DNA of 64,000 bases from an uncultured Actinomycetes bacterium. GTDB taxonomy: Bacteria > Actinomycetota > Actinomycetes > Streptosporangiales > Streptosporangiaceae. The stretch covers positions 132,925-196,924 of the forward strand of contig CAWIGE010000019.1 in the NCBI GenBank assembly GCA_963835425.1, given 5' to 3'. The notes beneath the pieces were generated by a model. That model ran no database searches, was not told the origin of the DNA, and was given only the letters and a program-made list of their open reading frames with translations. The position numbers and the translations under genes are program-made. This document shows positions 6,578 through 53,856 of this stretch, piece by piece. Position 1 is the stretch's first letter; each line of letters opens with the position of its first letter.

Positions 6578-6706
6578 CCGTCCCGGCGGGCGGTCGCCGG
6601 TCATGGGTCCTGGCGCGTCCAGCAGTGCACCGAAGGCGCTGCTGCCTGCGGGCTCAGCTTGCGGGGCCGGACTCGCGGCCCGATTCCCGCGGTCCGCGCA
6701 CGGTGA

Positions 6707-30430: not shown

Positions 30431-33400
30431 TCAGACCCAGAGGTCGGGTCGGTAACGTTCGGCCGTCTCCATCTCCTGCAGGTAGGCCTCCGCATGCTCG
30501 CGCGGCAGCGACCCATCTTCGGTGACGACGTCGATGAGCGCGGCACGAACGGCGTCGCGCATCGGCTGCGAGCCGCAGACGTAGACGTAGCCGCCGGCGT
30601 CGAGCAGGCGCCAGACTAGCGCACCCTGCGCCCGGATCCGATCTTGGACGTATTCGCGGGAGCCGGTCGGCTCGCGCGACGTCGCCACGTAAACGTGATT
30701 GAGCACCCCCTCGGCAGCGAACTGCTCGATCTCGTCGCGGTAGATGTAGTCGATGGTGCTTGAGCGGATGCCGTTGAAGAGCGCCGCCTCCGCCAGCGAG
30801 ACACCGGCGCGCTTCAGCGCCACCCGTTCCCACAGGAACGCCCGCATCGGGGCGAAGCCGGTGCCGGCGGAGACGAAGATCATCGGCTTCGTCACGTCCG
30901 CCTGCAGGTGGAACCCATCGGCGCTGTCGTGGAAGACGTTCAGGCGGTCGCCCTCCCGGAGCGTGTGCACGTAGTACGAGCTCATCCCGCGGAAACCGGT
31001 GCCGGTCATGCCCGGCACCGGCGTGGCCTCGAGGCCGACGGTCACGTGGGCGACGCCGTCGCCGTGGATCCGCGGGCTGGAGCTCGTCGAGTAGTAGCGC
31101 GGCCGGAGTGGCTGCGCCACCTGCAGGAACTCGAAGATGTTCAGCGAGCAGGACGGGAACTCGTCCAGTAGCCGGAGCACGTGGTAGCCGCCCGCGTCGA
31201 TCGCCGCGCGCAGCGGCGTATCGGGACCGTCCGGTGCCTGCAGGACATCTCTGATCTCCACCAGCCTCGACCGCTCGGCGGGGTCGGCCGCCTTCTCGAG
31301 CAGGAGGTCGAGCAGCGGCACCGTCGGCCTGCCGGTGATGTCAACGAGGTTGGTGAGCACGTTGCGGATCTGGAGCACGACCCCCTTCGGCGCGGCCCGG
31401 GCGTTCATCGTCTTCGGCACCATGAACAGGCCGTCGGGCGCCGCGCCGAGGTGCTGTGCGAGCCGCTCCACCTGCTCCTCGTCGTTCTTCGGGCAGACCC
31501 CGAGGTGGTCGCCGACCCGGTAGGCGACGCCGGGCGGCAGGCTGACCTCCAGATGCCGCGTCCGCTTCGGCGAATCGGCCGGCAGGAGCTCCCGGCACAC
31601 CAGCACGCGCGCCTCGACCGTGTCCATTCCGACGGCATTGCTGAGGATCGCCGGGGCCAGCAGCACCCGTGACTGCGTGCGGCTCCGGCCGCCCGGTTCT
31701 GGCGGGCCGCCGCGCAGCGACGCGGCCCACCTCCGCGACCCCGACGACATGCGGCGCATGATCGAAGAGGCGCTCCTCTCCGGGGGCGCGGGGGCGGCCG
31801 GGTCCGGCGCGCGGTCGTCAGCAAGGAGTGATCTGTGCATCGCGGTGCTGGAGTCGGCGCCCGTCAGCACGCCCGCGGCCGCCTTCTCGGCGGCGTCGCG
31901 CGCGGCCGCGGCCTCGGTCGGCCGCGCCCCGGACAGCTCGAGGAGCGCGGGCCAGACGCGGGCGTTCCAGTCCGCGTGCAAGCGCTCCCACACGGGCGAG
32001 CCCACGTCACCGTAGGCGAGCTCCGCGACCGGCGTGGCGCCGAGCCCAGACAGTTTCTTGTGCACGTAGCGGGGGAACGCCATGAACGCGTTCCACTGGG
32101 TGTTGCCGAGCCCCCAGACGAGATACCGGCAGTTCCGCCACATCTCGCCGCCGGGTTCCGTGCGCTCCAGCCACGCGCTGAACGCCGCCGCGTTCGTGGG
32201 CGGGTTCGACGTGTAGGTGGAGGTCATGACGACGAGCAGCCAGGGGTGCGTGCGGGCCGGGGACTCCGCGAGCTCGTTCAGCGTGATCGCGTCGCTCACG
32301 TAGCCGTGGAAGTGGCTGCGCTCGGCGAACCGCTCAGCCAGCTCCTTGTTCGCGCCGAAGTTGCTGCCATAGGCGATCACGAGATCCCGGTAGGCGCTCG
32401 TCTCGGGAATCTCCGTCGGCTGTCCCCACTCGGGCGCGGCGGCGGCCACGGCGACCGGGGGAGCGGCGGCAGGAGCGGGAGCGGCCGGGCGGTCACGTAC
32501 CACGGCCGCCCGCGGGCGCCCGTCCTGCTCGCGCGGCAGGCGGATGATCGGAACCGCGGCCGGTTTCGTCGTCACGACCGTGTTCTTCGCCACCGTCGCG
32601 CCCGGCGCGAGACGCAGCCGGTAGTGGCGGAAGACCTCGAACAGGACGACGCGGAGCATCATGAACGTGACCTCTTGCGCCATGCACTGCCGCTTCCCGA
32701 TCGAGAACGGGATGTATGCGTGGCGCGGCCGGTCGACGACCTTGTCCATCGCGAACTGGTCCGGATCGAACCTGTCGGCGTCGGGCCCCCAGTAGCGCGG
32801 GTCGCGCTGCGCGGCGAGCGTCCCGACGAGGATCATGTCGTCCTTCCGGATCCGGTAACCGCCGATCATCCCGTCCTTGAGGCTGCGGCGGATCGTGACC
32901 GGCATCGGCGGATAGATCCGCATCGTCTCCTTGATCACCTGCGTCGTGTAGGTCAGCGCCATCAGGTCGTCGTACTGAAGGTCGTAGTCCGGGTCGCGGC
33001 CGGTGATCCCGTCGATCTCGGCGATCAGCTTCTCCTCGACGTCCGGGTGGGTGCCGATGACATAGGCGAGCCACCCACCCGTGATCGACGGCCCGTTGAA
33101 GCCGTTCGAGAGGTGCATGAGGATCTGGTCGCGCATGGTCTCGTGGTCGAGGAACTCGCCCGTCCCGGGATCCGGCGTGGTCACGAGGCGAGTGAGCAGA
33201 TCCGTCGGCTGCCCGAGCGGGCAGGCGTGCGTGCGCGCGCGCACGAGCGCGTCGGCCGTTCTGAATAGCTCCTTGTTGTGACGGCGGTAGCGCCTCCTCC
33301 GCGCGCGCTTCGCACGCCCGGCGAAGAGCGTGGAGTCTGGGTAGGGATCGGCGACGCGCCGGATGCTCTCCTTCGTGCTCTCCGGAACGGCGACCGCGAA

Positions 33401-34711
33401 CGGGTGCGGCTCGCCGCTGCCGTCGAGCAGGCCGAAGTCGTAGTTGCACGCGCCGCGTCCCGAGACCTCCAGCGTGTAGCGCTCCATCCAGGCGCGCGCG
33501 TCGATCGGCTCGTCGTCGGGGATCGCGGACCACGCGGCGACGAGCTTCCGCGCCTGATCCTTCATCTGCCCGAGCTGCGTCCGCTGGTTCATCGGTGAGT
33601 ACCACGGCAGCATCACGCGGCGGATCTGCTCAGTGTGCTCGCCGTCGCCGATCACCGAGATGCCGCCGCCACGGGAGTTGCTCAGCTGGGCGAAGAAGTT
33701 GACCTCCTCGGCGCGCTTGCCGAACTGCTCCTCGTCCGCCGCCACCTCGTCGAGCAACTCGGGGTCCGAGACCACCACGAGCCGCCACTTCTTCGTCGGC
33801 ACTCCGACCGCGTAGATGTGCCCGAACCGGCGGTAGTAGTCGAGCTGAGTGTCGTTGTCGTTCAGGATGTGGAAGTTCGCGAACCGCTCGCCATTCGGCA
33901 CGAGCCAGCGGATCGCGTAGGGGATCTCGAGCGCGCCGTCGCCGTCGCCCGGCGGGGCCGAGGCCAGTTCCAGCCGTTCCCCGGCGAGGGCGCCGGGTGC
34001 CGCGGTGACCGGCGGTGCCTCCGCGGCGGCGGCCGGCGGCGGTGCCTCCCCGGCCTCGGCGTCGGCGTCGGTGACCTGCTGCAGTTCCTGGCCGATCAGC
34101 CGGAACGTGGCGGAGCCGACCTGGACGGTGTCCCCCTCGGACAGCGCCGCGTCCGTAACGCGCTGCCCATTGACGAAGGTGCCGTGACTGCTGTCCAGGT
34201 CCACGATGCGGTATCCGCCCGCCGTGTTGCGCAGTTCCGCGTGCTGGCGGGAGGCGGTGGGATCGGAGACCACGATGTCGTTCTCCGGCGCCCGGCCGAT
34301 GTGCACCGTCGTGGCGGACCGTGGCCGAGCCGCATCCGGCTCACCGTCCGGCTCCGGCTGCGAGCCGTCTTCGCTGACAGTGCAGGTCAGCACCGGCCCA
34401 TCAGCGGGATTGCCGAGCCGGACCTGGCATTCCGCGTCGATCTCGATCCGGTCTACCTGCTGGCCCCGGGCATAGGTGCCATTGGTGCTGCCGTTGTCCG
34501 CCAGCACCCAGCGGCCGTTCTCCAGCTGGAGCATTGCATGGTGCCAGGACACGCGGATATCGGCGATCGCGATGTCGCACTCTGGATCGCGGCCGATCAC
34601 ATACGAAGGGCGCCGGCAGGCTCCGGTCAGATCCCTGGGTCCGTACCAGAAGCGGCGCGGCCCCCCCCGAAAGGGACTTTCCGTCCACGCGCCAACTCTA
34701 GAGCGATTCAT
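30431..34711 (-). CDS. FHA-FHA-cytochrome P450-FMN/FAD/NADPH reductase fusion (CYP102/P450-BM3-like self-sufficient monooxygenase with two N-terminal FHA domains)
   Basis: Intact 1426 aa. Two FHA cores are present (..IGRDPECDIAI..VSWHHAML..NGSTNGTY.. and ..IGRAPENDIVV..ASRQHAEL..DSSHGTFVNG..). The heme loop is PFSIGKRQCMAQ (Cys codon about 32684-32686). Flavodoxin-like LVIAYGSNFGANKELAE..VVMTSTY. FAD/NADPH motifs RHLEVSLP..GDHLGVCP, RYYSTSSSP and IFVSAGTGFAPMRAF. Confidence 0.9.
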   Translation of the reverse strand: MNRSRVGAWTESPFRGGPRRFWYGPRDLTGACRRPSYVIGRDPECDIAIADIRVSWHHAMLQLENGRWVLADNGSTNGTYARGQQVDRIEIDAECQVRLGNPADGPVLTCTVSEDGSQPEPDGEPDAARPRSATTVHIGRAPENDIVVSDPTASRQHAELRNTAGGYRIVDLDSSHGTFVNGQRVTDAALSEGDTVQVGSATFRLIGQELQQVTDADAEAGEAPPPAAAAEAPPVTAAPGALAGERLELASAPPGDGDGALEIPYAIRWLVPNGERFANFHILNDNDTQLDYYRRFGHIYAVGVPTKKWRLVVVSDPELLDEVAADEEQFGKRAEEVNFFAQLSNSRGGGISVIGDGEHTEQIRRVMLPWYSPMNQRTQLGQMKDQARKLVAAWSAIPDDEPIDARAWMERYTLEVSGRGACNYDFGLLDGSGEPHPFAVAVPESTKESIRRVADPYPDSTLFAGRAKRARRRRYRRHNKELFRTADALVRARTHACPLGQPTDLLTRLVTTPDPGTGEFLDHETMRDQILMHLSNGFNGPSITGGWLAYVIGTHPDVEEKLIAEIDGITGRDPDYDLQYDDLMALTYTTQVIKETMRIYPPMPVTIRRSLKDGMIGGYRIRKDDMILVGTLAAQRDPRYWGPDADRFDPDQFAMDKVVDRPRHAYIPFSIGKRQCMAQEVTFMMLRVVLFEVFRHYRLRLAPGATVAKNTVVTTKPAAVPIIRLPREQDGRPRAAVVRDRPAAPAPAAAPPVAVAAAAPEWGQPTEIPETSAYRDLVIAYGSNFGANKELAERFAERSHFHGYVSDAITLNELAESPARTHPWLLVVMTSTYTSNPPTNAAAFSAWLERTEPGGEMWRNCRYLVWGLGNTQWNAFMAFPRYVHKKLSGLGATPVAELAYGDVGSPVWERLHADWNARVWPALLELSGARPTEAAAARDAAEKAAAGVLTGADSSTAMHRSLLADDRAPDPAAPAPPERSASSIMRRMSSGSRRWAASLRGGPPEPGGRSRTQSRVLLAPAILSNAVGMDTVEARVLVCRELLPADSPKRTRHLEVSLPPGVAYRVGDHLGVCPKNDEEQVERLAQHLGAAPDGLFMVPKTMNARAAPKGVVLQIRNVLTNLVDITGRPTVPLLDLLLEKAADPAERSRLVEIRDVLQAPDGPDTPLRAAIDAGGYHVLRLLDEFPSCSLNIFEFLQVAQPLRPRYYSTSSSPRIHGDGVAHVTVGLEATPVPGMTGTGFRGMSSYYVHTLREGDRLNVFHDSADGFHLQADVTKPMIFVSAGTGFAPMRAFLWERVALKRAGVSLAEAALFNGIRSSTIDYIYRDEIEQFAAEGVLNHVYVATSREPTGSREYVQDRIRAQGALVWRLLDAGGYVYVCGSQPMRDAVRAALIDVVTEDGSLPREHAEAYLQEMETAERYRPDLWV

Positions 34712-34917
34712 GTGAAAGTAAAACAGTTTTTGCTGAACCGTTCAGGGGCTTTCGCCGTCGCGGCGGTGCGCGCCACTGCAGTGCGAGCCAGCGCCGTTCG
34801 CCAGCTCGGCCAGATGGTCACGTTCGGGTCGAATCAGCCGAGGGGAACGGGGCCGCTGTAGGCCGTCACGCTCCGTTTCGCAACGTCCTCGTTGTGTGAA
34901 CCCAGCCCGCAGCGGCC

Positions 34918-35330
34918 ATGCCCGGTCATGTGCCCCGGACTGTCCCCTATATCGGCTCCAAAACCCAGAATGGTTTCGGCACCTTTGGCCAGCCGGACAT
35001 TGCTGCGACGCTGGTGGCGGCGGGCAAAGCGATCAGGGAAGTCTGCTACCAGAAATGGTGGGTGCACCTGCGCCACCGGCCGGAATCCGGCGGCGCGATC
35101 GTCTACCTGCAGAAAACCGGGCAGGGCGGGACCGTCGAGGGCCATGTGAGCGATACGGTTCTCAATTCGCAGGCGGTGCAGGCCAGCTTCAAGGCGAACA
35201 ACAGCTATTTCTGCCCCAAGCCTTCCCCGGAGGCTCGCCCACCCATCCGGTGTATCCGGCCGGGCCTGGCATCCATGCCGGGATCCAGCGCCACCGCGAC
35301 GATCCTCAACCTACATCCCGCTGTGTGAAC
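34918..35330 (+). pseudogene. Partial, diverged second copy of the vanadium-haloperoxidase-like gene (internally deleted)
   Basis: ..PYIGSKTQNGFGTFGQPDIAATLVAAGKAIREVCYQKWWVHLRHRPESGGAIVYLQKTGQGGTVEGHVSDTVLNSQA.. parallels 36549-36790 with scattered substitutions. It then jumps to a GIHAGI-like segment. Confidence 0.6.
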
Positions 35331-35564
35331 TCGGCCCGCAGTGGCCGGCGTACCGTTGCCGGTCCTGCCCGGGTGCCCGCCAGTGGACCCTGGGGCGGCG
35401 ACGGGGTATCACGCTGGCAGGTCATCCTGGTCATACCCGGCCATGTGTCCCGGACTGCTCCGTCATCCGGGCCGATGGACCTCACCGGGCAAGGTCCTTC
35501 ACGGCCAAGGCGTCAGCTTGACCGTGACTCAAGCGAGACTTAATTTGCCCATGCCACTATCCGG

Positions 35565-37215
35565 GTGGGCAAAGACTGGAGCACGACACAGGATCCGGAT
35601 GTAGAAACGATGGCCCGGGCCGGGCCAAGCGACGCTGCCGCCCTCAGGCCCGGACCACCGGATGGAGCCAGGAAGACACTTAACGCGGAGCTGAACCGGC
35701 GACCGGCGGCCGGGTCTGGCGATCCTGGGCATTGCGTACCCGAACGGCAGGGGAGCGACGCCTTCGCCGCCCCTCCGGCCCAAGTCGATAATGGCGACGA
35801 GGCGCGCTACGGCGATAAATCGGGAACCCATACGAAAGATGTGCTGCAATCAAACGTCGGCGTGGTCGATCCCGCTGCCTACCAATCGTTCAAGGCCGCG
35901 CTGAGCAGTGGCGACCCGGCTGACTTCGAGAAGATCGTCGTGGGTGGGTCGCGTACCCTCAATGGGCCGCAGGCGGCCTGGCGTTCTACCTGGACAGCCT
36001 GGATGGCAGCCAGTACGCCGTCCCGCCCGCTCCCGAGCTGGCGAGCGAGGCCTACACGACGGAACTCGTGGAGCTCGACTGGGCCTCACTACTGAGGGAT
36101 GTCGCGTTCACCACCTATCCGGCGAGCAGCTGAGGCCATGCGGGCGGCGGCCGAGTTATCGTCCACGCCGACATACGCGGGCCCACGTGACGCCGCCAAT
36201 CAGGTCACGCCGGGGCTGTTGTTCCGTGGCGGCCTCGCCGGCGAGACGGTTGGGCCTTATGTATCACAGTTCCTGCTCCAGCCGACCGCGCTGGGATCGC
36301 TGCCGATCACCCGGAAGTACATCGGCAACAAGGCCGGTGAAGACTTCATGACGGGGCCCGCCGAGTTCCTGAATGTGCAGAACGGCATCCCCACCGGGAA
36401 GAGCCTTACCCCGGGCACGGCACTTTATCTGCACAACGGGCGCGACCTGGCCGCCTACACGCATGATGACGTCCTGTATCAGGCATATCTCATCGCGTAC
36501 CTCGTGCTGACCCACAATCAACAACGGCACCCCGGCGACCCTGAACCGGGCAACCCCTATATCGGTTCCAGTACCCAGAATGGGTTCGGCACTTTGGGCC
36601 AGCCTGACATTGCTGCGACACTGGTAGCGGTGGCGGGCAAAGCCATCAGAGAAGTGTGGTACCAGAAATGGTGGATGCACCTGCGCCACCGGCCGGAATC
36701 CGGCGGCGCGATCGTCTACCTGCAGAAAACGGGGCAGGGCGGAACCGTCGAGGGCCACGTCAGCGATACAGTTCTCAATTCGCAGGCGGGCAGACCAGCT
36801 TCAAGGCAAACAATAGCTACTTTCTGCCACAAGCCTTCCCCGAAGGTTCGCCAACCCGTCCGGCATATCCGACCGGTCATGGCGCAGTGGCTGGAGCCTG
36901 CATCACGGCACTGAAGTTCTTCTTCGATGGCACCTTCGCAATCGAGAACCCGCTCGTGCCGTCCAGCGACGGAACGGCCACCGCCGCCTGCACTGCCCCG
37001 GCGGGCGAGGCGCCACTGACCGTGAACGGCACAACATCAGCTTCGGTCATGGCATCCATGCCGGGATCCACGGGCGCAGCGATACCGATACGTCGATCCA
37101 GCTGAGCGAGGCGGTGGCGCTGAGCCACCTGCAGGACCACGCTCACACCTACAACGAGCGACTCCGTATCTCGCTCACCAGGGTGGACGGCACCACCGCG
37201 ACCATCACCAACTCC
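35565..37215 (+). pseudogene. Vanadium-dependent haloperoxidase-like (PAP2 superfamily) gene, multiply frameshifted or deleted
   Basis: Family landmarks are spread over three frames: NGDEARY..KDVLQSNVGVVDPAAYQSFKAALSSGDPADFEKIVVGGSRTLNGPQ, GLAFYLDSLDGSQYAVPPAPELASEAYTTELVELDWASLLRDVAFTTY, WYQKWWMHLRHRPE, LPQAFPEGSPTRPAYPTGHGAVAGACITALKFFFDG and GIHAGIHGRSDTDTS..TYNE. Confidence 0.65.
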
Positions 37216-37239
37216 CGAAGCCGGGCCAGGCTCCCTGGC

Positions 37240-37585
37240 TCAGCTTGGCCCATGGCCGCGGGTCGCTGAGTTGGTGCCGCCAGGCTGCGGCTGCGTACTC
37301 GCTGGGTCGCGTCGCCAGGTCAGCGCCACGGTGAAGTTCGCCGTAGTGCTGACAGCAGCGATGAACGCCCCGGCCTCGGCGTGGAGGTCGAGGCCGAACT
37401 CGACGTGCACCTCGTCTGGTACCTCGGCGAGAGAGCGCAACTGCGTGATGACGCCTTCCACCGCAGGCTGGACGCGGCCAACCGCCTCTTCGAAGGTCTG
37501 CCGCGCCCGTTCAACTACTTCGGGCCCCTTCAGGCTGGCGCGTCACCGGGCCCGTGTGATGCCCGGTGACGTTGACCAGCACTGA
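37240..37585 (-). pseudogene. 3' part of a Trypco1-like (CU044_2847-family-like) gene interrupted by the IS; also carries a frameshift
   Basis: ..VLVNVTGHHTGPVTR / ASLKGPEVVERARQTFEEAVGRVQPAVEGVITQLRSLAEVPDEVHVEFGLDLHAEAGAFIAAVSTTANFTVALTW... The family call is from a recalled motif (PDEVxVEFGxKxxAEAGxxIAKxxxEANFxVxLTW). The frame changes at about 37525-37535. Confidence 0.6.
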
Positions 37586-37604
37586 TACGGCAGCTGTAGT
37601 TCGT
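37586..37604. repeat. Terminal inverted repeat of the IS (left end in window coordinates)
   Basis: tacggcagctgtagttcgt. Confidence 0.9.
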
Positions 37605-37609
37605 TGTGA

Positions 37610-38968
37610 TCATGGTGTTGTCTCGGCATAGGCGTTCCAGCGTTGGTGGGCTTGGCGGGCGCGGTGCTGGTGGCGGCGCCGCCAGGTGGACCAGTGCAGC
37701 CGGTGGGGCCGGTCTCGGTGGGGTGGTGGGATGACGGTGTCGCGCAAGAGCCGCAGCAGTTCCGGGATGGTGATCGGGATCAGCCCGGCGTCCGGGTCTG
37801 AGCCGGCGTCGTGCTGGCGCTGCACGGCGACGGCGACGGCGAGGTAGAGGTAGGCGAGCAGGCAGATCGCGGTCCAGCGGTGCCAGGACTTCCAGCGGAT
37901 GACCTGCCCGGCGTCCAGGCCGGTGGCTCTGCTTGGCTGAGCTGGTGATCTTCCTCGATACGCCACCTGGCCGACTGCGATGGCGATCAGCCGGGACAGC
38001 GGGACCGGCCCGGGTGTCCAGCACCGGTAGAAGGACAGCTTGCCGGTATAGCGGTGCCGCCGGACCAGCAGCACGCTGTGCCCGTCCTGGTGCCCGTCGG
38101 GGGTGTCGTCGCTGGTCACCTGGAGCATGGCCCAGTCGTAGTGCCGGGTGCCCTTGGTCCCGGACCCGGTGCGCATCCGGTGCCAGGCGCGGGCGGGAAT
38201 CAGCGGCACAGCTTGGGCCGCGGTCAGGGCGCGGCCCGAGCCGGCGGTGATGGCGTGGTTGGCGCGGACCGCCAGCACATAGCCCATGCCGCGCTGGCGG
38301 ATGCCGCGGCGCAGCTGGCGGCCGCCGTAGACCTCATCACCGGCCACGAAGGCGGCGCGGATCCCCGCGCGCATGCGCGCGGTCCAGCAGGCCGCCGGCC
38401 AGCTGCGGCTTGGTGGCGAACATCACCTCCTCCGGGACCCCGGCCAGCTCGCGGTGCTCCTCATCGCAGCGCAGCGCTTCGGGCAGGTACAGAGCCCGGC
38501 CGATCAGCGCGTGCCCGCGGCGGGTGGCATAGGTCAAGGTGACCGCCACCTGGCACAGCGCGATCCCGCCCACGGTGCCGCTGTACTGGCGGGCCGCGCC
38601 GGCCGCAGTCGGCTGAGGACTTCTCATCGGCGGTCTCATCCACGATCAGCACCGCATCCCCGTCATCGAGATGGCTGACCGCCCAGGCCGCCGCGGCGTC
38701 CAGGATCTGCTGGTCGTCCCAGACCGCCCGCGACAGCAGGTGCTGCAGCCGGTGCGGCCCGCGGTGCCCGGCCGCCTCGGCGATGGTCCAGCAGTTGTGA
38801 TCTTCCAGCTCCATCAGCAGCCCGCTGCACCATCTGGCTGCAGGACTGGCGGGTCTCCCGCCGGGGAAAGCACCCGGCCACCCGCCCGAGCAGATCCGCC
38901 AGCAGCGCCGACCGGGCATCATCAGATAGGGTGGCAGCAGCGGCTGCCGCGTCTTGATTGTGTCTCAC
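37610..38968 (-). pseudogene. IS701-family transposase gene, broken into at least 4 frames
   Basis: The pieces are MRHNQDAAAAAATLSDDARSALLADLLGRVAGCFPRRETRQS, ..LLMELEDHNCWTIAEAAGHRGPHRLQHLLSRAVWDD..AVLIVDETADEK, ..ARQYSGTVGGIALCQVAVTLTYATRRGHALIGRALYLPE..FATKPQLA and ..AFVAGDEVYGG..WHRWTAICLLAYLYLAV. An RWRIEEDHQ segment is readable only in a shifted frame. Confidence 0.8.
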
Positions 38969-39040
38969 AACTCGTCATGATCGCGGCAGCCGCACCTTTA
39001 TGCGGTCATCCTGCTGACCTGCACAAACAACCCGAAGATC

Positions 39041-39059
39041 ACGAACTACAGCTGCCGTA
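39041..39059. repeat. Terminal inverted repeat of the IS (right end in window coordinates)
   Basis: acgaactacagctgccgta is the exact reverse complement of 37586-37604. Confidence 0.9.
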
Positions 39060-39105
39060 ACTGAGCCTCCTGATTCCAGCGGGAATTCGACCAACTGTCC
39101 CATCG
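39060..39105 (-). pseudogene. 5' part of the IS-interrupted Trypco1-like gene
   Basis: The reverse strand reads ATG GGA CAG TTG GTC GAA TTC CCG CTG GAA TCA GGA GGC TCA GT = MGQLVEFPLESGGS. An RBS ggaagggag lies upstream. It joins in frame to 37585 once the IS and one TSD copy are removed. Confidence 0.65.
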
Positions 39106-39276
39106 CCACCACTCCCTTCCAGGCGATTCCCGGGCTCGCTGAGCGAGATCGGTGACCGCCACTTCAGGCCTAGAGAGAAAGAAACTAGCAGCGAGAATGG
39201 TTATAGGTCTGCGCATACCCGCAGGTCACAAGGGGGGAGTGGCGGAGTTGTCAGATGAAGGGCCTGCCCAACCAGA

Positions 39277-40852
39277 GTGGGCGGACGGGATCCGCGGCAG
39301 GAACAGCCAGTGACGGACACACCGCAGGAGAAGCCACCGCCAGAACGCGGCAAGGTCCAGTGGGGCGACATCCTGTCTGAGCTAATGTATTTGCTCCGTT
39401 ACATGCTTGGTATGGGGGTGATGCGGGCATCTGGACGGCCCCGGCACCCGGTCAGCGGCGGCGAGCCTCTTTATGCGCGTGCGGTGCTGGAAAGCGCGAA
39501 GATCGAAGAACGCTACTTCTACGAGCAGGAGATCTCCCGGAACCCGCACAGCAAGATGTTGCGCCGTCCAAAGGGGAAAATAGAACTCACGCTCCCCTAT
39601 GACGGAGATCGGTATTTCACCAGGCAAGCGTACACAGATATCACCCGTCTCTATAACCCCACCTATGGTGATGCCCGCGCGCTTGTCGGACACTTGGCGC
39701 TTACCGGCTACGGGCAGACGAACCTCGGCGGTCTGCTGGACCTAGGCGAGACCTACGGATCCATCCCGCTTAAGGTAGCTGTCCCGGCCGCTTCCGGCCA
39801 GCCTGCTGACTTGATAGCTGATCGCAGCAGCAGCGTCTTCAGCTGCGAGTACGAGCCGAGCACCGATCGGATCAAGGTCAGGCCGGTCACCGTCGAGATC
39901 GACCTGCTCGACCCCGATAGTTCCGGATTTTCTGCCCGTGAGGGTGAGGAGGGGACGGCCGAAGAGATCATGCAGCAGGTCAGCTTCCGGTCCGAACTGC
40001 TGCTCCGCATGAAGGTCTGGCTCCACGCTCCCGGTGCGCCGGATGGGGTCGTACCCGCGGAGGTGAAGAAGGTGACTGTTAGCTGGCCGACCATCACGTC
40101 CCTCAGGTCACTCAGCCTGACGGTGAACGGGGAGGATCACCCGGTCAGGTACAACCCCAAGGATCGCTGCCTCGAGTGGTTCAAGGTCTCGATGACCCTG
40201 AGCCCTGACGCACCTGCCGGAGACATGCAGACCTATACCAGCGGCGTAATGGAGTTGCGGATTCCGGAGCCGGGAGAGCTCTACCAGGAGCGTAACCTGA
40301 CGGGCACGGTAGAGGTGAGGATGGGCAAGCTCCTGTCCGGCATGGAGGCAAGGCTCTACAGCAGCGACCGGGTCTATTCGGCACCGGCCAAGGCTTAAGC
40401 TCCATACTTACATATCCACTGACTTTGACCTGATCCTAGGTGACGCCTTCGCTCGGCGGGAGCTCACGCCATACCAGCACCTCCACTTCGATGAAGTGAT
40501 ACCGAGCGAGATGCGGATAAGCGACATCAAGATCGCGTTGACCAACCGTGGCTTCAGGCTCACGCATGAATGGCTAGATAGTGGCACGGAGGGCCGGTGG
40601 CTGCGGGCGGAGCGGTTCGAGGGCCCAGACCGGATGGTACTCGTTCTCTACATCCAGGGGATATTGCATCAGGCGAGGCGAGATTCACGGATCCCCGGCG
40701 GCATCACCTACCGGAGCAACCTGGATAGCGGCGAGATACGAATCTACGTCCGTGGTCAGCTGAAAAGGAAGAGCCAGCCAGTTATCCATGAGATGAACGC
40801 GCTGCGCAGGGCTCTCCGCGAGCGTTTCGACCACCTCCCGGCTAGACGCTGA
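39277..40852 (+). CDS. Island gene 1: large uncharacterised protein, paralogue of island gene 2 (one apparent frameshift at about 40385-40400 joins track ORFs 39277..40398 and 40496..40852)
   Basis: The second ORF has no RBS, and its frame stays open back to 40382 (..LKLHTYISTDFDLILGDAFARRELTPYQHLHFDEVIPSEM..). The joined protein aligns collinearly with gene 2 (see findings). Lower-GC codon usage. Confidence 0.55.
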
Positions 40853-40876
40853 TGAAGGAAGCTGGAGGGCAGCCTG

Positions 40877-42585
40877 ATGGATGGCACGCCCAAAGAGCGC
40901 GCTCCGCGGGCGCGCTGCTATAAGTGTGGATCATCTCAGATCACCCGCATGTGCCACCATTGCGGGAGAATTGGCTGCAGCGCGCATGTCACGCCAACCC
41001 GCAAGCTCTGGGGCCGGCCGCTTAGCCGGGAACTGCGGGGCCTGGACATGGACAAGAAGGCTGCTTATCACTGCCCCGATTGCGCTCATCTCGGCAGTCC
41101 CGTGCTGACGGTTGGCGTCATAGGGGTGATAGTGGCACTGGCGGGTGCCGTTGTCCTCTGGCTGAGTTTCTGGGCCGGCCTGGCCATGGTTCTGCTGGGC
41201 GCAGCAATAGCGATTGGAAGCTATATCGCAGGCCGCCGCAGAGAGGCAAAGCGAGAGAGATTGCCGCTTCCAGTCCTGCCGAGACTGGAAGAACTCAGCG
41301 TGAGAGAAGAACTCAGTGGCAGGGTCATACTCTGGCCGAGCGGTGATTACGACCAGCCCACACCTGATCCGGTACAGGGTGAACTAACAGCTAATCTGGT
41401 GCTCGGTAAGACCGACCGTCGCCGTCTCGAGGGGTACGTACACAGGCACCGGATGCCACAAGGTAGCGACGTTAAGTTCTGTGCGGGATTCCTGGTTCTC
41501 CAGGGCCAGGTCGGCAGCAGTTTGTCACGCATTTTTCCCGACCTATCTATCCCGCTCGATGGCACGACCTCCGACTATCTGGTGTTTGATGTGGAACGTC
41601 ATCGCGCATCGAGTTCATATCGTATCGACTACACTTATGATCTGATAGCAGGCCGGGAAGTTAAGAAGGTTCCGGTCTGGATCACACCTGCTATTGCCCC
41701 CAGATCCGACAAGCGTGGACTGGAGCTGCAGATTCAGTGGGTTGATATGGGTAACCAGGAGCACAGCTTTCGTTGGAGAACGTTGAGTCACTGGAATTGA
41801 GGGTTCCAGTGGAATGGGGGGATGTTGTAGACTTCAACAAGCCCGTCCTATCGAGCCTCCGGGCAAACGAAGAGGACGGTCAAGCGCGAGGCTCATTGAA
41901 TGGGTACAGTTGCGGCCCAGCGAGCAGGAGAACCAGCGCAAGCGGCTTGATTTTGTTGTACAGTTTGAAGACAAGATCAAAGAGGGAGATGCCATATCTG
42001 GCCGCCTCGATATGGTCTTCAAAGGAGCCATCTCGGGGATCGAGCGGATCCATCTCTACAGTCCCCTTGGGGATCGGCGGATACATTCATCTGCCGCGAA
42101 CGTTACAACCCATGTGATGCTGGACTTCGAGCTCAGCCTGACGAGCACCCGCTATCAAGACGTCAGGTTGGTTCCTGATCGCAGGATGTCGGAAGATCGG
42201 GATAGGGGCGAGGCCAGAGAATTCCCGGCAGTGATACCGAACGACAGATACCGTCATCAGACTCACGAATGCCCTGAGCGAGCAGGGATACTACATAAAG
42301 CGGATCATAGAGAACCCGCGGAGAAGTGGCCCCCGGGCGAATCTGGTCCGTCGTTACTGGGACATCGCGGGTCGGCATTATGCGGGTGTCTACCCAATAG
42401 ATTTCCATATCATCCTGACCGGTGACGAGATTCAACGCGGTGGAATACGCGCACATAGTGGTACGACGAAGGCGTGCGTAACTGTGCAAGGATCATACGC
42501 GAACCCGGATATGCAAAATCGCGTCGAGAGGGCATGGGACAGGCTATACGACCTGATAGTGAGCACGCTGGAGTCACTGTCGTGA
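40877..42585 (+). CDS. Island gene 2: double Zn-ribbon + 2 TM helices + beta-rich region + C-terminal domain shared with gene 1 (three apparent frameshifts at about 41770, 41888 and 42245)
   Basis: RBS ggaggg precedes ATG 40877. CYKCG..MCHHCGRIGC..YHCPDC, then VLTVGVIGVIVALAGAVVLWLSFWAGLAMVLLGAAIAIGSYIAG. A sensible reading continues through frames 41773.. and 41814.., then a third frame to the TGA at 42583-42585 (..IRLTNALSEQGYYIKR..RVERAWDRLYDLIVSTLESLS*). Confidence 0.6.
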
Positions 42586-42738
42586 CCCGCACAGTCCGGG
42601 GCGGCTCGACCGGATCCACCAGATGGCTGGGAAGAACCCGTTGGCGGCCTGGCCGTCGCTGGCAGGCAAAATGACTCCGGCCCGGATCACGTCCCGAGGA
42701 ACACCGCGGTGGCTAGGGCGGCGATGATAGGAGGCTTC

Positions 42739-42963
42739 ATGTCCTGGGAGTGCGCTGAATGCAATGTCAAGGAATCGGCCGGCAGGATGATCGACGCCAT
42801 CTGCCATCATTGTGGCAAGCCGCTGTGCCGTGATGACCGGATTGAGATCGCTGACAATGCCTTCAGCAGTGGTGGGTCAACTGGCCCAACGGCGATCCAC
42901 TGTCGTGCCTGCAGGCGGAAGCATCATGCCAGTGCCGTGGCGCTGGGCGTGGCAGAGCGATGA
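42739..42963 (+). CDS. Island gene 3: small stand-alone Zn-ribbon protein homologous to the N-terminus of gene 2
   Basis: RBS aggagg (42729-42734) sits 4 nt before ATG 42739. The protein reads MSWECAECN..ICHHCGKPLC..IHCRACRRKHH. Its stop overlaps the gene 4 start (ATGA at 42960-42963). Confidence 0.6.
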   Translation: MSWECAECNVKESAGRMIDAICHHCGKPLCRDDRIEIADNAFSSGGSTGPTAIHCRACRRKHHASAVALGVAER

Positions 42964-44247
42964 TCGAAGTGACGCTCCGGCAGGCGGAGCTTCTCGTCGG
43001 CGAGGACGCGGACGTCGTCGTGCAACTCGCGAACACCGGGCCGGGGGCATGCACGCACATCTTTTTCACGCTGACGTTGCCGGGCGAGATCATGCTGCTG
43101 CACGGCCAGGACGAGATAGAGGTGGACCGCCTGGAACCGGGGGAAACTGCCACCCGCACCTTGCGTGTCCGGCCTCTTAGCGCCGCCCGGTGCCGGGTCA
43201 CGAGCACGAACTTCTCGTACCGGGATCGCTACGGGTTGACATGCCGCCGGGACCGTGACTTCCGAGCGGTGCTTGTTACGACGGTGCCCGAGCGGCGCGG
43301 GCCGGAGCCGGGAGCGCGGCCACCCGCCCTGAAGACGACTTTCACCGTCAACCTCGTCACGGCCGAGCTGCCTTACGGTGAGTGGACTTTACTGGAGGGT
43401 CGCATCACCAACTCGGGCGATACGGAGCTGGGGAACGTTGAGCTCAGCATCTCAGGGCCGGTAGCCCCCGGCAAACGGGGGCGCAAGGCCAGGCTCGGTT
43501 CGGTGCGCGCCGGCAGCCGAGGCTTCGTTTGGATTCTTCGTATGCGCAGATGGGGCCGCGGGCACGGTGCCAGTTTACCTCGACCTCTCTTTCGTTGATA
43601 AGGCCAGGCGCTACGCTCGGGCGCTTGTGCGGACGGTGCAGGTCGCCAAGAAGAATCAGCCATCACCTTCGGCGCTGACAGAATCTGTTGTCCTGTTTTT
43701 TGCTGCCAATCCTGTCGATACCGAGGTGTTGCGTACAGGCAAGGAATTCATGGTGATCGAGAGGGCCCTGGAGAGCGGCCGCGGGAAGGCCAGGATAAAG
43801 ATACGCCCTTCGCTTGCCACGCGAGCCAGAGATATTAGCCGAGAGCTACTGCAGGTAAAGCCGTGGATTGTTCATTTCGCGGGCCACGGCGGAGGACTGG
43901 AGGAGAGTTTCGCAGTTGAAGACGAGGATGGTTACGCGCGCGTTGTTCCGACGGGTGGCTTGTCAAGTCTTTTCGAAATAGCCGGGAAAGGTGTTGAGTG
44001 CGTCATTATAAATGCTTGCTCTACCGTGGGACTGGCGCAGGCTCTGTCTCAGCACGTTGATTACGTGATCGCGATGAGCCAGCCTATCTATGATTGGGAT
44101 GCAATCGAATTCAGCAGGGCCTTTTACCAGGCGCTGGCGGCCGACTACTCGATCAGGTCCGCCTTCGACCTAGGCCTTGCGGAGCTGGAGATGTTGTCGG
44201 ACGGTGCGGCCTATGACATTCCAAAAATCCTAGGCCGCCAGGGCTGA
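42960..44247 (+). CDS. Island gene 4: two CARDB-like beta-sandwich repeats + C-terminal minimal CHAT/caspase-like peptidase domain (one apparent frameshift at about 43515-43526)
   Basis: Two repeats follow the pattern V..G....V.V.L.N.G.......L..P.....L.PGE. After ..RLGSVRAGS the sensible frame becomes EASFGFFVCADGAAGTVPVYLDLSFVD.. (track ORF 43567..). The CHAT-like core is VVLFFAANPVDT..WIVHFAGHG (His codon 43885-43887)..VECVIINACS (Cys codon 44017-44019)..YVIAMSQPI.D..AIEFSRAFYQAL. Confidence 0.65.
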
Positions 44248-44308
44248 CCCGGCTGTCCTGCCCGTTGGGTGGCCAAGATCCGCAGCTGTTGCCGCGCAGG
44301 TAGCCGCC

Positions 44309-45826
44309 TCAGGCCGTGATGACGTGGTACTCCGATACGTCCAGGTGACGGGTGGCACGCCGGAACCCGAGCGTGGAGCCGGGCCACAGCGTCGTGTTGC
44401 GCCCGGCGGCGTTGAGGTACCAGCTCACGCAGCCGCCGGTGGCCCACACCGAGGACGCCATCCGCCGCTCGACGCCGGCGCACCAGCGCTCCTGCGCGCC
44501 CCGTCGCGCGTCGAGGGCGGCAGCCCCGGTCCGGTCCAGCGTCGCGAGATAATCCAGGATGTAGTGGAGCTGGGACTCGATGATGTGGACCATCGAGCTG
44601 TGGCCGAGCCCGGTGTTGGGCCCGATGACCAGGCACAGGTTGGGGAAGCGCGGCACGGTGGTGCCCCGCAGCGCCCGCATGTCGCCGTCCCAGGCCTGGG
44701 CCAGGGTCACGCCATCGGCTCCGGTGATGCGCCCGGCAATGGGCATGTCCACCGCGCGGAACCCGGTGGCCAGAATGATCACGTCCACATCGTGGGCGGT
44801 GCCGTCCCCGGCGATCACGGTGTGGCCGTCCACCCTGGCGAGTCCGCCGCCGACCACCTCCACGTTCGGCCGCGTCAGCGCCGGATAGAAGTCGCTGGAC
44901 AGCAGGATCCGCTTGCAGCCCATCACGTAGCGCGGTGTCAGCTTGGCGCGCAGGACGGGGTCGGGCACGGACTTGGCCAGGTGGCGCTCCGCGATGCGCT
45001 GTGCGGCCTTCAGCATCCCCGGCCGTGCGACGAAGGCGGCGAACGCGGGCTCGCGGACCAGATAATTCCCCAGGCGGGCCAGGCGCTGGGCCGGAGGAAG
45101 GTGGCGGTAGACCCACTTTTCCGGCCCGGTGATGACCCGGTCACGGCGCGGCAGCACCCAGGCCGGGGTGCGCTGGAACAGCACCAGGCGGGCCGCCGTG
45201 GGCTGGATCTCGGGCACGATCTGGATCGCGCTTGCCCCGGTGCCGACCACCGCGACCCGCTTGCCGTCGAGACGGGCGCCGTGGTCCCAGCGTGCTGAGT
45301 GGAACACCTCCCCGGGGAAATCCGCGAGCCCGGGAACGTCGGGAAGGCGCGGTTCGGAGAGCGGGCCCGCCGCCGAGATGAGGACGTCGGCGGTCAGGCC
45401 AGTCTGGGCAGCCGGGTTGGCGTGGAGGTCTGGCCCGGCAGGGGAGTCCGTCGGCCCGGTGCGGGCGATTCGCAGCCGCCAGCGCGCCAGGCCGGCGTCC
45501 CAGCGGGCCTCGGTGACTTCCGCCCCGAGCCGCAGATGGCCGCGCAGGCGGTAGCGGTCGGTGATCTCTTCCAGGTAGTCCCAGATCTCTGGCTGCCGGG
45601 AGAAGCTGTGGGTCCAGCCGGGGTTCGGCGCGAACGAGAACGAGTACAGGTGCGACGGGATGTCGCAGGCGCACCCGGGATAGGTGTTGTCCCGCCAGGT
45701 GCCGCCCACCGAGACCGCCCGCTCCAGGATGACGAAGTCGGTCACGCCCGCCTGCCGCAGCCGGACGCCCGCACCGAGCCCGCCGAAGCCAGCGCCGATG
45801 ATGGCGACGCGCACATGTTCAGGCAC
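44309..45826 (-). CDS. Flavin-dependent (Baeyer-Villiger/FMO-type) monooxygenase
   Basis: ..VAIIGAGFGGLGAG.. (FAD-binding), ..GGTWRDNTYPGCACD.., FxGxxxHxxxW-like FPGEVFHSARWDH, and a second Rossmann motif VAVVGTGASAIQ. The start could instead be ATG 45901. Confidence 0.85.
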   Translation of the reverse strand: MPEHVRVAIIGAGFGGLGAGVRLRQAGVTDFVILERAVSVGGTWRDNTYPGCACDIPSHLYSFSFAPNPGWTHSFSRQPEIWDYLEEITDRYRLRGHLRLGAEVTEARWDAGLARWRLRIARTGPTDSPAGPDLHANPAAQTGLTADVLISAAGPLSEPRLPDVPGLADFPGEVFHSARWDHGARLDGKRVAVVGTGASAIQIVPEIQPTAARLVLFQRTPAWVLPRRDRVITGPEKWVYRHLPPAQRLARLGNYLVREPAFAAFVARPGMLKAAQRIAERHLAKSVPDPVLRAKLTPRYVMGCKRILLSSDFYPALTRPNVEVVGGGLARVDGHTVIAGDGTAHDVDVIILATGFRAVDMPIAGRITGADGVTLAQAWDGDMRALRGTTVPRFPNLCLVIGPNTGLGHSSMVHIIESQLHYILDYLATLDRTGAAALDARRGAQERWCAGVERRMASSVWATGGCVSWYLNAAGRNTTLWPGSTLGFRRATRHLDVSEYHVITA

Positions 45827-46008
45827 GGTGTCAGTGTCCTGGATCCAGGGCCCCGGCGGCGAGCCCACGCGGCACCCATGGATGTATCGGGCGGAACCCA
45901 TGGATGTGTAAAGCAAAACCCATCGATGTATCAAGCCATCAAGGTGGCGCTCCTATCCATGTTGGGACGGCCGTGACACGGCATCGGGGAGGCAGGGGGA
46001 GTTCGGCG

Positions 46009-47451
46009 ATGACCTTTGATGACGCCGGGAGCGCTGCGATGCGTGCTGACCTGGTAGATGTCCGGGCCATCCGTGAGCATTTCGTGTTCCCCAAGCTGGG
46101 CCGGGTGGTGACGAACAACGCGGCGAGTACACAGCCGCCGGCCGAGTTGCTGGAGCTGTACGCCTCACTGGGGCCCGGCTATGAGAACGTCCACCGCGGC
46201 CAGTCCAGCGCCTCCCAGGCGATGACCGCGCGGTTTGAGGAGTCCTACGACACCATCGCCCGGTTCATCGGCGCGCCCAGCCGGGCCTGTATCGCCCTGT
46301 ACCGGAACACGACCGAGGCGATCAACGCGGTCATGTACGCGCTGCTGACCGAGTTCCGCGACGGCGACAACGTGGTCACCACGCTGATGGAGCACAACTC
46401 CAACTACGTCCCCTGGTACGGCCTGTGCCGGGAGATCCTGCCGCGCCTGGGGCGGCGGGTCGAATACCGGCTGGCCAGGTTCGACCCGGTGACCGGGGAG
46501 CTGGACCTGGCCCACCTGGCGTCGCTGATCGATGGGCGGACCAAGCTGGTGTGCTGCACCGGGGCGTCGAATTTTTTGGGCACTCGGCCCCCTCTCGATC
46601 AGGTGCGGGCGCTGGCCGGTGCCAGCGGGTACCGCCAGCCGAACGGGGAGCGCCGGTCGTATCTGCTGGTGGATGGGGCGCAGCTGGTCCCCGGGTCGTT
46701 TGTTGATGTGCGGACGCTGGATGTGGATTTTTTGGCGTTCTCGTTCCACAAGCTGCTCGCCCCGTTCGGCGTAGGCGTCCTGTACGCCAAGCAGCATCTG
46801 CTGGAGGGCATGCTGCCGTTCCTGTACGGCGGCGACATGATCGCCGAAGGGCGCGTGCTGCCCGACCTGGTGGAGTACAACGCGCTGCCGTGGAAGTACG
46901 CGGCCGGCACGCCCAACATCCTGGGGGCGATCGTCTCCGGCCAGACGGTGCGCATGCTGATGGACCTGGCGCTGTCCCCCCGGCGGCCGCTCTACTACGG
47001 CACGGGCAAGGTGATCGAGCGCGCGGCTGTGCGGGAGGCGATGGGGCGGGTGGCAGCGTGGAACCGGCAGCTGACCGCCCGCGCGCTCGACGGGCTGGCC
47101 GCCATCCCCGGCATCACCATCTACGGGCCCCGCGACCCGGCGCAGCGTACGTCGCTGGTGGCGTTCAACCTGGCCGGCCGCGACCCGGTAAGCGTGGCCC
47201 AGGCGCTGGACCGGGCCGGGATCGAGGCCCGGGCCGGCTGCCACTGCGCCACCCTGGCCCACCACACGCTCAAACTCGACCCGCCCGCCAGCTGCCGGCT
47301 GAGCTTCTACCTCTACAACACCCCCACCGAGATCGACCGGGCCGTCGCCGCGGTGGCCGCCATCGCCACCGGCCACCACGAACACACGGTCCCGTGGTAC
47401 CGGCGCCTCCGCTGGCCGGCCCTCGTGCCGGTCACGGTGGCACCGGCATGA
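46009..47451 (+). CDS. Class V aminotransferase / cysteine-desulfurase-like PLP enzyme
   Basis: ..NNAASTQPP..NVHRGQSSASQ..YRNTTEAINAV..DFLAFSFHKLLAPFGVGVLY (PLP lysine)..AGCHCA... Start taken at ATG 46009 inside the track ORF. Confidence 0.85.
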   Translation: MTFDDAGSAAMRADLVDVRAIREHFVFPKLGRVVTNNAASTQPPAELLELYASLGPGYENVHRGQSSASQAMTARFEESYDTIARFIGAPSRACIALYRNTTEAINAVMYALLTEFRDGDNVVTTLMEHNSNYVPWYGLCREILPRLGRRVEYRLARFDPVTGELDLAHLASLIDGRTKLVCCTGASNFLGTRPPLDQVRALAGASGYRQPNGERRSYLLVDGAQLVPGSFVDVRTLDVDFLAFSFHKLLAPFGVGVLYAKQHLLEGMLPFLYGGDMIAEGRVLPDLVEYNALPWKYAAGTPNILGAIVSGQTVRMLMDLALSPRRPLYYGTGKVIERAAVREAMGRVAAWNRQLTARALDGLAAIPGITIYGPRDPAQRTSLVAFNLAGRDPVSVAQALDRAGIEARAGCHCATLAHHTLKLDPPASCRLSFYLYNTPTEIDRAVAAVAAIATGHHEHTVPWYRRLRWPALVPVTVAPA

Positions 47452-53014: not shown

Positions 53015-53056
53015 GGCGCTGCCAGCCGGGCGTTGACGCCGGTCGCGCGCGGGGCG

Positions 53057-53856
53057 TCAGACGCGGGCGGTGTCCTTGCGGAACCGCCAGATCGCGCCGG
53101 CGGTGAAGATGGCCAGCCAGGCGACGGCGTTGACCACCCACCACACGTCCATCGCCCCGCCGGTCAGCGGCCAGTGCACCAGCTGGTTGACGCCATACAG
53201 GGGAGTGAACTTGGCCAGCACCTGCAGGGCGTGCGGGTACTGGCTCAGCGGGACGAACAGGCCGCCGCCGAACGCCAGCAGGATCATGATGAAGCCCATG
53301 AACTGCATGACGTTCTCGGTCGGCAGCAGGTAGCCCAGGAACAGCCCGAAGGGCGCGAACACCAGCGCGCCGATCCACACGCACAGCGCGGTGACGATCC
53401 ACAGGTACCCCAGCATGGACGGCTTGTGGGTGGCGAACCCGACGATGTAGACGGCGAGCACCGAGACGAACCCGAGCACCATCGAGGTGAGCATCTTGGT
53501 CACCACGTAGGCCAGCGGGGACAGCGGGGTCAGCCGGCAGCTGCCTGGTCCAGCCCTGCGCCCGCTCGATGGAGATCATCGCCCCGCCGCTCGTGGTCGC
53601 CAGGACCGCAGCCGTACAGCGCCATGCTGATCAGGATGAAGGCGGAGACGTTGCCCTTCCCCGCCGACTCGTTCGCGTACGCGGCGTTGAGCCCGAACAG
53701 CAGGAAGAAGATCGAGGGAGTCACCAGGGCGAAGATCACTGTGCGCCGGTTGCGGAGCAGGCGGCGGATTTCCAGCTTCAGCACCGTGAAGCTGAACCCG
53801 CCCATCGGCGGGACCGGCCGGCTGCTGAGCTCGGCCGCGGTTGCGGTGGTGGTCAC
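53057..53856 (-). pseudogene. ABC-2 type permease split over three frames
   Basis: ..FTVLKLEIRRLLRNRRTVIFALVTPSIFFLLFG..ILISMALYG / AVLATTSGGAMISIERAQGWTRQL / RLTPLSPLAYVVTKMLTSMVLGF... The shifts are at about 53607-53613 and 53533-53542. A GTGA overlap links it to the ATPase stop. Confidence 0.7.

Follow-up and report, generated by a model that had tools for sequence, protein, structure and literature searches.

A conserved Actinomycetota cassette ending in a predicted short CHAT protease with two N-terminal beta-sandwich repeats

Death effectors that are licensed by proteolysis are coming to be seen as a central principle of bacterial immunity, parallel to caspase-gasdermin signaling in animals. 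One of them, Pepco, reportedly owes its name to Nicastro et al. in 2023. The corresponding Trypco1 domain was defined, together with Trypco2, as a domain found alongside peptidases of conflict systems (Kaur et al. 2020, eLife e52696). Pepco is reported to be a preformed beta-barrel that associates with proteases of the serine or cysteine class and becomes membrane-permeabilizing once the protease removes its C-terminal tail, which is charged and proline-rich (Evans et al., bioRxiv 10.1101/2025.11.14.688446). CHAT proteases act in two further characterized systems, SAVED-CHAT of the Haliangium ochraceum type III-B CRISPR/CBASS hybrid (Protein Data Bank (PDB) entry 8tl0) and the type III-E Craspase. 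In the latter, which consists of gRAMP and TPR-CHAT (Csx29) cutting Csx30, the protease is gated by its partner complex and has a dedicated substrate. The active-site configuration of Craspase is near-identical to that of SAVED-CHAT, and the SAVED-CHAT double mutant H375A/C422A is catalytically dead (Steens et al., bioRxiv 10.1101/2023.06.23.546230). Here we analyzed a stretch of 64,000 nucleotides (the window) from an uncultured bacterium of the Streptosporangiaceae (contig CAWIGE010000019.1, positions 132,925 to 196,924). Its gene D (42960..44247, + strand) encodes a predicted short CHAT/caspase-like peptidase to which two CARDB-like beta-sandwich repeats are fused N-terminally. D is the last gene of a four-gene cassette, A-B-C-D, beside which the window carries a Pepco/Trypco1 gene.

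Gene D was identified from two open reading frames (ORFs), from CHAT and CARDB matches in Pfam and from about 40 intact full-length homologues. In the window the ORFs overlap (42960-43598 and 43567-44247) and lie one frame apart; the ATG of D overlaps the stop codon of gene C (ATGA). The reference for the indel calls was the locus of the closest relative, L001, which is syntenic with window positions 39060-45852 at 96.6% DNA identity and encodes an intact D, P0001. Alignment to this orthologous locus located one extra base in the window gene, the G at 43507 in ggtgcGcgcc. The first-pass annotation, which was made from the letters of the window, had placed a frameshift between the repeats and the CHAT domain at 43515-43526. 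The frameshift is present, and its position lies 8 nucleotides upstream of that interval. Removal of base 43507 yields a single ORF of 428 residues that reads ...LGSVPPAAEASFGFF... across the site. The repaired protein differs from P0001 at 15 positions, all of them variable, and shows no change at the 27 invariant and 47 near-invariant columns of the family alignment (32 sequences, 33-85% identical to the first sequence). The motifs VLFFAANP, WIVHFAGHG, CVIINAC, YVIAM and AIEFSRAFYQAL were all found where the annotation had put them, and in the 32-member alignment they form invariant or nearly invariant columns. A programmed +1 frameshift was ruled out because about 40 homologues encode D in a single frame. 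JGI metagenomes, scanned for the exact pattern of the frameshift site both with and without its additional base, gave zero matches.

The C-terminal part of D (residues 242-428; 43684..44247, +) matches the short CHAT domain, a caspase-like peptidase fold of clan CD. In Pfam, CHAT (PF12770) was assigned to the repaired protein with 28.7 bits against a gathering cutoff of 24 (E 1.2e-6), and in the precomputed annotation it was present in 51 of 52 homologues, among the matches listed. The PADLOC models SAVED_CHAT and chat matched D at about 1e-6, over the CHAT part only. Over the same part, the D family profile retrieved 8tl0 from the PDB sequences at E 8e-29. The AlphaFold2 model of D was built from 32 sequences and has a mean predicted local distance difference test score (pLDDT) of 83.8, with low-confidence linkers. 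It consists of three parts, namely sandwich 1 (residues 1-108), sandwich 2 (128-229) and an alpha/beta domain (242-428), in which beta and alpha elements alternate and pLDDT is mostly 84-96. Its best Foldseek match in the PDB was the activated SAVED-CHAT filament 8tl0 (E 1.7e-13); the matches that followed were tandem beta-sandwich proteins, among them transglutaminase C-terminal barrels and RbmA. The CHAT assignment of the first-pass annotation is thus borne out, and the predicted fold agrees with it.

The putative catalytic residues of D are H309 (codon 43885-43887, in HFAGHG) and C353 (codon 44017-44019, in NAC). Both are invariant in 32 of 32 family sequences. In the sequence-profile alignment they coincide with H355 and C402 of the deposited 8tl0 sequence. 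This construct is offset by 20 from the native numbering, and H355 and C402 are therefore native H375 and C422, the residues exchanged in the dead double mutant. The His-Cys dyad noticed earlier is intact in the repaired protein, and its three-dimensional geometry is predicted from the profile alignment and the similarity of the folds.

N-terminal to the protease, the model shows a tandem all-beta sandwich fold. Repeat 1 (residues 1-108; 42960..43283, +) is CARDB/TRAP-beta-like, was delimited by its Pfam match and the AlphaFold2 strands between residues 3 and 108, and carries an invariant NFSY motif (N84 F85 S86 Y87) in the 32-sequence alignment. Repeat 2 (residues 128-229; 43341..43647, +), which contains the one-nucleotide insertion at 43507, was delimited by AlphaFold2 strands and by hhalign to repeat 1. 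The two repeats are homologous to each other (hhalign probability 96.8%, E 2.6e-10), in agreement with the pair of beta-sandwich repeats read from the letters before. Their Pfam family is less sharply defined. CARDB (PF07705) barely passed, for repeat 1 only, with 22.8 bits against a cutoff of 22.7, and was graded "faint" in the precomputed annotation of the homologues; the competing families NPCBM_assoc (23.1 against 24.4) and TRAP_beta (17.9 against 22.4) stayed under their cutoffs. A TPR match to D was absent from Pfam. D lacks both a signal peptide and a hydrophobic N-terminus, starts straight with a beta-strand, and is therefore presumed to be cytoplasmic.

By profile and by fold, SAVED-CHAT is the structure closest to D. 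Both proteins have the same short CHAT domain with an aligned dyad and a noncatalytic N-terminal module fused to the protease, and D, like SAVED-CHAT, would act on a specific partner protein. In contrast to SAVED-CHAT, the N-terminus of D is made of two immunoglobulin (Ig)-like beta-sandwiches instead of SAVED, and the D locus has no gene for a cyclic-oligonucleotide synthase, Cas10 or PCaspase. Activation of SAVED-CHAT proceeds by oligomerization into a filament, driven by the noncatalytic domain. Membership of D in this group was ruled out, as there is no SAVED domain and no cyclase or Cas10; the latter two were found in none of the 19 loci described below. The D locus differs from Craspase in having no TPR repeats, gRAMP, CRISPR array or homologues of Csx30/Csx31. 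TPR-CHAT was not among the PDB sequence matches of the D profile, and Craspase membership was ruled out because TPR and the gRAMP/Csx30 neighbors are missing. A bacterial gasdermin-protease system was also rejected, since no gasdermin match was found near the protease (Pfam and PADLOC, operon proteins and listed families of flanking ORFs). CHAT proteins fused to EAD1, TIR, WD40, TPR or FGE possess a related CHAT domain and other partner domains than D.

The size of the Ig-Ig-CHAT family was assessed by several searches. Among 5.8 billion proteins, about 40 homologues of 418-434 residues were found, with 96-100% coverage and 34-96% identity, all in a single frame. When 1.84 billion cluster representatives (clusters at 50% identity) were searched exhaustively with the profile, the CHAT part alone matched 33,831 representatives, and about 60 of the best 150 of these had the full-length architecture (405-450 residues). 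The N-terminal Ig repeats alone, used as query in a word-indexed search for further effectors joined to such repeats, returned one fragment. In a GTDB genome scan, 12 of 12 full-length matches belonged to Actinomycetota. They comprise MFD-labelled metagenome-assembled genomes (MAGs), Streptosporangiaceae MAGs and the isolate Trebonia kvetii 15TR583 (L019), in which A, B, C and D are all intact. With tblastn, no full-length D was found on plasmids or phages; plasmids gave CHAT-domain matches only and phages zero.

Relatives that share the CHAT part only occur in cyanobacteria, Longimicrobium, Chloroflexota and others, where the partner domains are FGE, TPR, TIR, EAD1 and WD40. The short CHAT pattern had been likened earlier to conflict-system proteins of cyanobacteria and actinobacteria, and the CHAT domain of D is indeed 29-42% identical to such proteins. 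The locus L054 encodes a more distant relative of this short CHAT domain, joined there to an FGE-sulfatase domain (P0049); a DUF4384 gene and a gene for a 1009-residue protein lie downstream. The latter has WD40/beta-propeller matches and a weak Peptidase_C14 match, and this may be another multi-protease conflict locus. A literature search for "CHAT domain" and "CARDB" together found no paper. NCBIfam models, run on all window ORFs, included none for D, and the public names of D homologues were only "CHAT domain", "hypothetical protein" and "uncharacterized repeat protein". The earlier claim that the architecture is undescribed therefore stands as far as it was tested in the literature searched.

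The genomic context of D was compared among the window, seven contigs retrieved through identical proteins and the 12 loci with full-length D from the GTDB scan, counted as 19 loci. L002 and L009 carry the same genes, as do L003 and L004, which leaves 17 distinct loci. D is the last gene of the cassette A-B-C-D in 19 of 19 loci, and the gene order is conserved while the flanking genes vary. The products comprise about 480-580 residues for A, about 570-740 for B and 74-79 for C. Gene C (42739..42963, +) encodes a zinc ribbon of 74 residues in the window (CxxC...CHHCG...C...HCxxC) and is present in 19 of 19 loci. Gene B (40877..42585, +; recognized from hidden Markov model (HMM) fragments; 569 residues in L001) combines a zinc ribbon, a hydrophobic stretch and an A-like body. 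In the window it is broken into four ORFs by three one-nucleotide indels relative to L001, near 41752, 41888 and 42246. The hydrophobic stretch (residues 68-121, about 53 residues) has a length that suits two transmembrane helices, and most members have a C-terminal helical extension. Gene A (39277..40852, +; also recognized from HMM fragments) encodes a soluble paralogue of the B body and is divided in the window into 39277-40398 and 40496-40852 by a one-nucleotide insertion near 40363 relative to L001.

A and B were recognized as paralogous by hhalign (probability 82%, E 1e-5, 308 columns), and both contain long, variable, acidic, low-complexity inserts. Gene C resembles the N-terminal zinc ribbon of B in reciprocal HMM cross-matches. 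B is thus predicted to be membrane-anchored, and A together with C to be its split soluble counterpart, because A is paralogous to the B body and C resembles the B zinc ribbon. Searches of intact A, B and C against Pfam and PADLOC with E values up to 1 gave weak zinc-finger noise only, which for gene C amounted to weak zinc-finger matches in Pfam. NCBIfam contained no family match for A or B among the window ORFs, their profiles had no significant match in PDB sequences, and no Pfam domain was found among 223 homologues of gene A.

Gene A was modeled with AlphaFold2 (P0053 of L003; 38 sequences, pLDDT 76), and beta structure predominates in the model. The folds that Foldseek ranked highest for it in the PDB were the mu-homology domains of AP-2, AP-3, AP-4, delta-COP, FCHo, SGIP1 and Syp1, with E 5e-9 to 6e-6, a TM score per target of 0.30-0.52 and a root mean square deviation of 7.5-24 Å. 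Comparison with viral structures (BFVD) gave low-TM matches only and no lead. The model of A and the mu-homology domains (AP-2 mu2, AP-3 mu3, delta-COP, FCHo, SGIP1) are both elongated all-beta double sandwiches. They differ in that identity is 7-13%, no Pfam match exists, and A adds a C-terminal alpha/beta domain and an N-terminal helix. In eukaryotes, mu-homology domains bind short peptide motifs. The likeness of the predicted fold is regarded as a lead to a peptide-binding scaffold, with homology not established.

Upstream of A and divergent from it stands a Pepco/Trypco1 gene, in the window as well as in L001-L004, L008 and L009. In the window it is severed by an insertion sequence (IS). 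The 3' part (about codon 14 to the stop codon; 37240..37585, -) was assigned by Trypco1 (PF19493, E 3e-22) and by comparison with L001; the match covers profile positions 27-98 only, and the L003 copy reaches E 1.6e-25. The 5' fragment, MGQLVEFPLESGG (39060..39103, -), was recognized by comparing the minus-strand translation with L001. Among the loci bearing Pepco, D is 45% to 96% identical. The local Pepco proteins have a conserved body up to ALTWRR, and the 13-26 residues behind it form a variable tail in which Pro, Ser, Thr and charged residues abound. The conserved Ile reported for serine-protease partners is not evident, and the boundary is RR. Because a conserved body is followed by a variable tail, this RR boundary is a candidate cleavage site. 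The arrangement resembles the described Pepco-protease modules, as a Trypco1 gene with a conserved body and a Pro/charge-rich tail stands beside an operon ending in a protease gene, in an actinobacterial setting. It differs from them in that most A-B-C-D cassettes carry no Pepco, and the sensors described by Evans et al. (FGE, TM-STAND, peptidoglycan-binding) do not include A, B, C or the Ig repeats. The first-pass annotation had proposed the products of its genes 1 and 2 as substrates; Pepco appears to be the likeliest substrate of D, ahead of these.

The IS that severs Pepco in the window is 1474 bp long, encodes a DDE_5 (IS701-like) transposase and occupies 37586..39059 (-), as defined by the synteny break relative to L001, its ends and the DDE_5 matches. 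Its ends are perfect inverted repeats of 19 bp, TACGGCAGCTGTAGTTCGT, and a 5-bp duplication, ACTGA, flanks it. The IS sits at about codon 14 of Pepco, is absent from L001 and has its transposase split across three frames by two frameshifts. In addition to these two, the window carries six frameshifts relative to L001, one each in Pepco, A and D and three in B. For each of the five genes (Pepco and A-D), dN/dS between window and L001 lies within 0.13-0.35, which argues for purifying selection. Judged from its sequence, the window system is probably nonfunctional as assembled, because the IS splits Pepco and the genes A, B, D and Pepco are frameshifted. The disrupted window copy is of little use in itself, and its value is that of a pointer to the family.

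The chances are about even that the frameshifts in D, Pepco, A, B and the transposase are long-read consensus errors, in which case only the IS would be real and the protease gene would be intact. A one-base deletion restores a D of 428 residues with every conserved position intact. The six frameshifts compare with only 79 substitutions in Pepco and A-D, at the low dN/dS given above, and are too many indels for neutral drift. The IS looks recent from its perfect repeats and duplication, yet its transposase lies in three frames. L001 has a contig name that appears to be Flye-style and frameshifts of its own, in gene A at an A4/A5 run (about position 2560, window 39569) and in an FMO-like gene (about 8422, window 45434), which was called as 332 + 131 residues. 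Indel lesions are therefore not unique to the window assembly. Furthermore, many of the related loci come from the MFD-labelled MAG set, with contig names typical of long-read assemblies. On the other hand, the frameshifts are clustered in the Pepco-IS-A-B-D stretch of about 7 kb, most of the indels lie outside homopolymers, and the large flanking genes, encoding 1426, 826, 582, 541 and 515 residues, are whole. The IS insertion, moreover, is certainly a real inactivating event at the locus.

The cassette occupies different chromosomal sites with unrelated flanks, and clustering of the flanking ORFs of the 17 loci revealed no further conserved neighbor. The GC content of the island is 0.55-0.65, compared with about 0.70 in the flanks. 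Between window and L001, dS is 0.03-0.09 for the cassette genes and 0.12-0.35 for the flanking genes (flanks 44309-47451 and 53040-54630), which suggests a recent exchange of the cassette between lineages. A GC content and a dS that are both lower than in the flanks point to horizontal mobility. Insertions have broken the cassette independently in three loci, namely the window, L010 and L018. In L010 an insertion of about 4 kb (about 1552-5699) lies inside gene A, and in L018 one of about 2 kb (about 5771-7929) lies inside gene B. Three independent disruptions would fit a costly or toxic system.

From these data a working scheme was derived. The scheme, according to which A, B and C sense a trigger, D is activated and D trims Pepco, stands in our judgment at an even balance. 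The data show the domain identities, the conservation of the dyad, the order of the genes and, in one clade, the association with Pepco; we infer what A, B and C do, the trigger, the cleavage of Pepco by D and the site of cleavage. A, its membrane-anchored paralogue B and the small zinc-ribbon protein C would form the sensing or scaffolding part. Upon a trigger, most likely phage infection, A/B/C would recruit or oligomerize D through its Ig domains and thereby switch on the CHAT protease. D would then remove the Pro/charge-rich C-terminal tail of preassembled Pepco barrels, probably just after LTWRR, and this trimming would be placed at the membrane where B is anchored. Trimmed Pepco would form a membrane pore and cause the death of the infected cell.

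Several observations weigh against this scheme. Pepco adjoins the cassette, but it is three genes away from D and on the opposite strand; in the published examples it lies immediately beside the protease and has been characterized only with the trypsin-type Avs4 (bioRxiv 10.1101/2025.11.14.688446), whereas the enzyme here is a CHAT protease. Pepco is missing from 11 of the 17 distinct loci, and a jackhmmer search across 53 loci detected no hidden copy in the loci that lack it. Trypco, EACC1, MBL and gasdermin were absent from the 25 families listed, out of 38, for the 117 ORFs flanking L010-L019, and from the precomputed Pfam annotation of L005-L007. Pepco was likewise absent beside one FGE-CHAT and one TPR-CHAT relative. 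The flanks of the cassette are metabolic and form no defense island, and of the cassette components only the CHAT domain of D is matched by defense models of PADLOC. Finally, the likeness of A to mu-homology domains is moderate only, with E 5e-9 to 1e-7 and a TM score per target of 0.45-0.52 for the best matches, at a root mean square deviation of about 8 Å. The absence of Pepco from 11 of 17 loci implies that the core cassette must work without it. A-B-C-D is thus the core system, and Pepco would be an output that a single clade employs.

The main rival to Pepco trimming is that D acts on other substrates, because most cassettes are found without Pepco. Here the cassette would be self-contained; D would itself be the effector and degrade host or phage proteins, or it would cut A and/or B, for example releasing or activating membrane-anchored B, and Pepco would be a late add-on with a secondary output role in one clade, or a mere neighbor. 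The 11 distinct loci in question have A-B-C-D without Pepco or, among the families listed, any other known protease-activated effector nearby. The long, variable, acidic, low-complexity inserts of A and B could be cleavable linkers, and B has two predicted transmembrane helices. There is also a precedent in the caspase-like protease that was reported to protect without an associated effector (Evans et al., bioRxiv 10.1101/2025.11.14.688446). However, the pairing with Pepco persists across lineages in which D is only 45-59% identical, Pepco is known only as a protease-licensed toxin, and no cleavage motif common to A and B was identified. We regard this rival as rather unlikely. That the cassette carries out regulatory proteolysis for housekeeping or development in filamentous actinomycetes, for example in membrane-associated signaling or in programmed cell death on differentiation, instead of serving immunity, is improbable, since the metabolic neighbors without a defense-island setting, the absence of PADLOC matches for A, B and C and the confinement of the family to developmentally complex, Streptosporangiales-like Actinomycetota would suit it, whereas the varied chromosomal sites with unrelated flanks, the GC content below that of the host flanks, the low dS suggestive of recent transfer, the IS or insertion disruptions in three independent loci and the linkage to a pore toxin are hallmarks of mobile conflict systems.

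The trimming scheme apart, a broader reading is advanced tentatively, at less than even confidence. A-B-C-D may be an undescribed, self-contained actinobacterial immune or cell-death system in which the mu-homology-like paralogues, soluble A and B with its zinc ribbon and transmembrane hairpin as anchor, form a sensor or scaffold together with C, the Ig-tethered caspase-like D is the protease, and one clade adds Pepco. The D system is best filed in the class of a protease plus a latent effector, with a new N-terminal module and three uncharacterized partner families. It offers a compact CHAT cysteine-protease partner for Pepco and three components, A, B and C, that lie outside described families. 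From it one would learn by what means a caspase-like enzyme that lacks an NTPase, TPR or SAVED sensor becomes active, and which function Ig-like domains have in the cytoplasm. If the mu-homology likeness of A reflects homology, A would be a bacterial relative of a hallmark domain of eukaryotic vesicle adaptors. The hypothesis is directly testable because an intact copy is available in the cultured Trebonia kvetii 15TR583, together with the Pepco-linked sequences of L003 and L008.

The remaining observations concern the neighborhood of Pepco in the window. The region 34896-37266, upstream of Pepco, has a reduced GC content of 0.64-0.66 and aligns to L001 in part only. Its ORFs (34896-35543, 35565-36095, 35908-36351, 36096-36911 and 36817-37266) gave no match in Pfam; the final pair, which overlap in different frames, may represent another frameshifted gene. 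Next to this region, an ORF of 1426 residues at 30431-34711 (-) encodes two N-terminal FHA domains followed by cytochrome P450, flavodoxin and FAD/NAD reductase domains. The product looks like a self-sufficient P450 fused to phosphopeptide-binding domains, which is an unusual combination.

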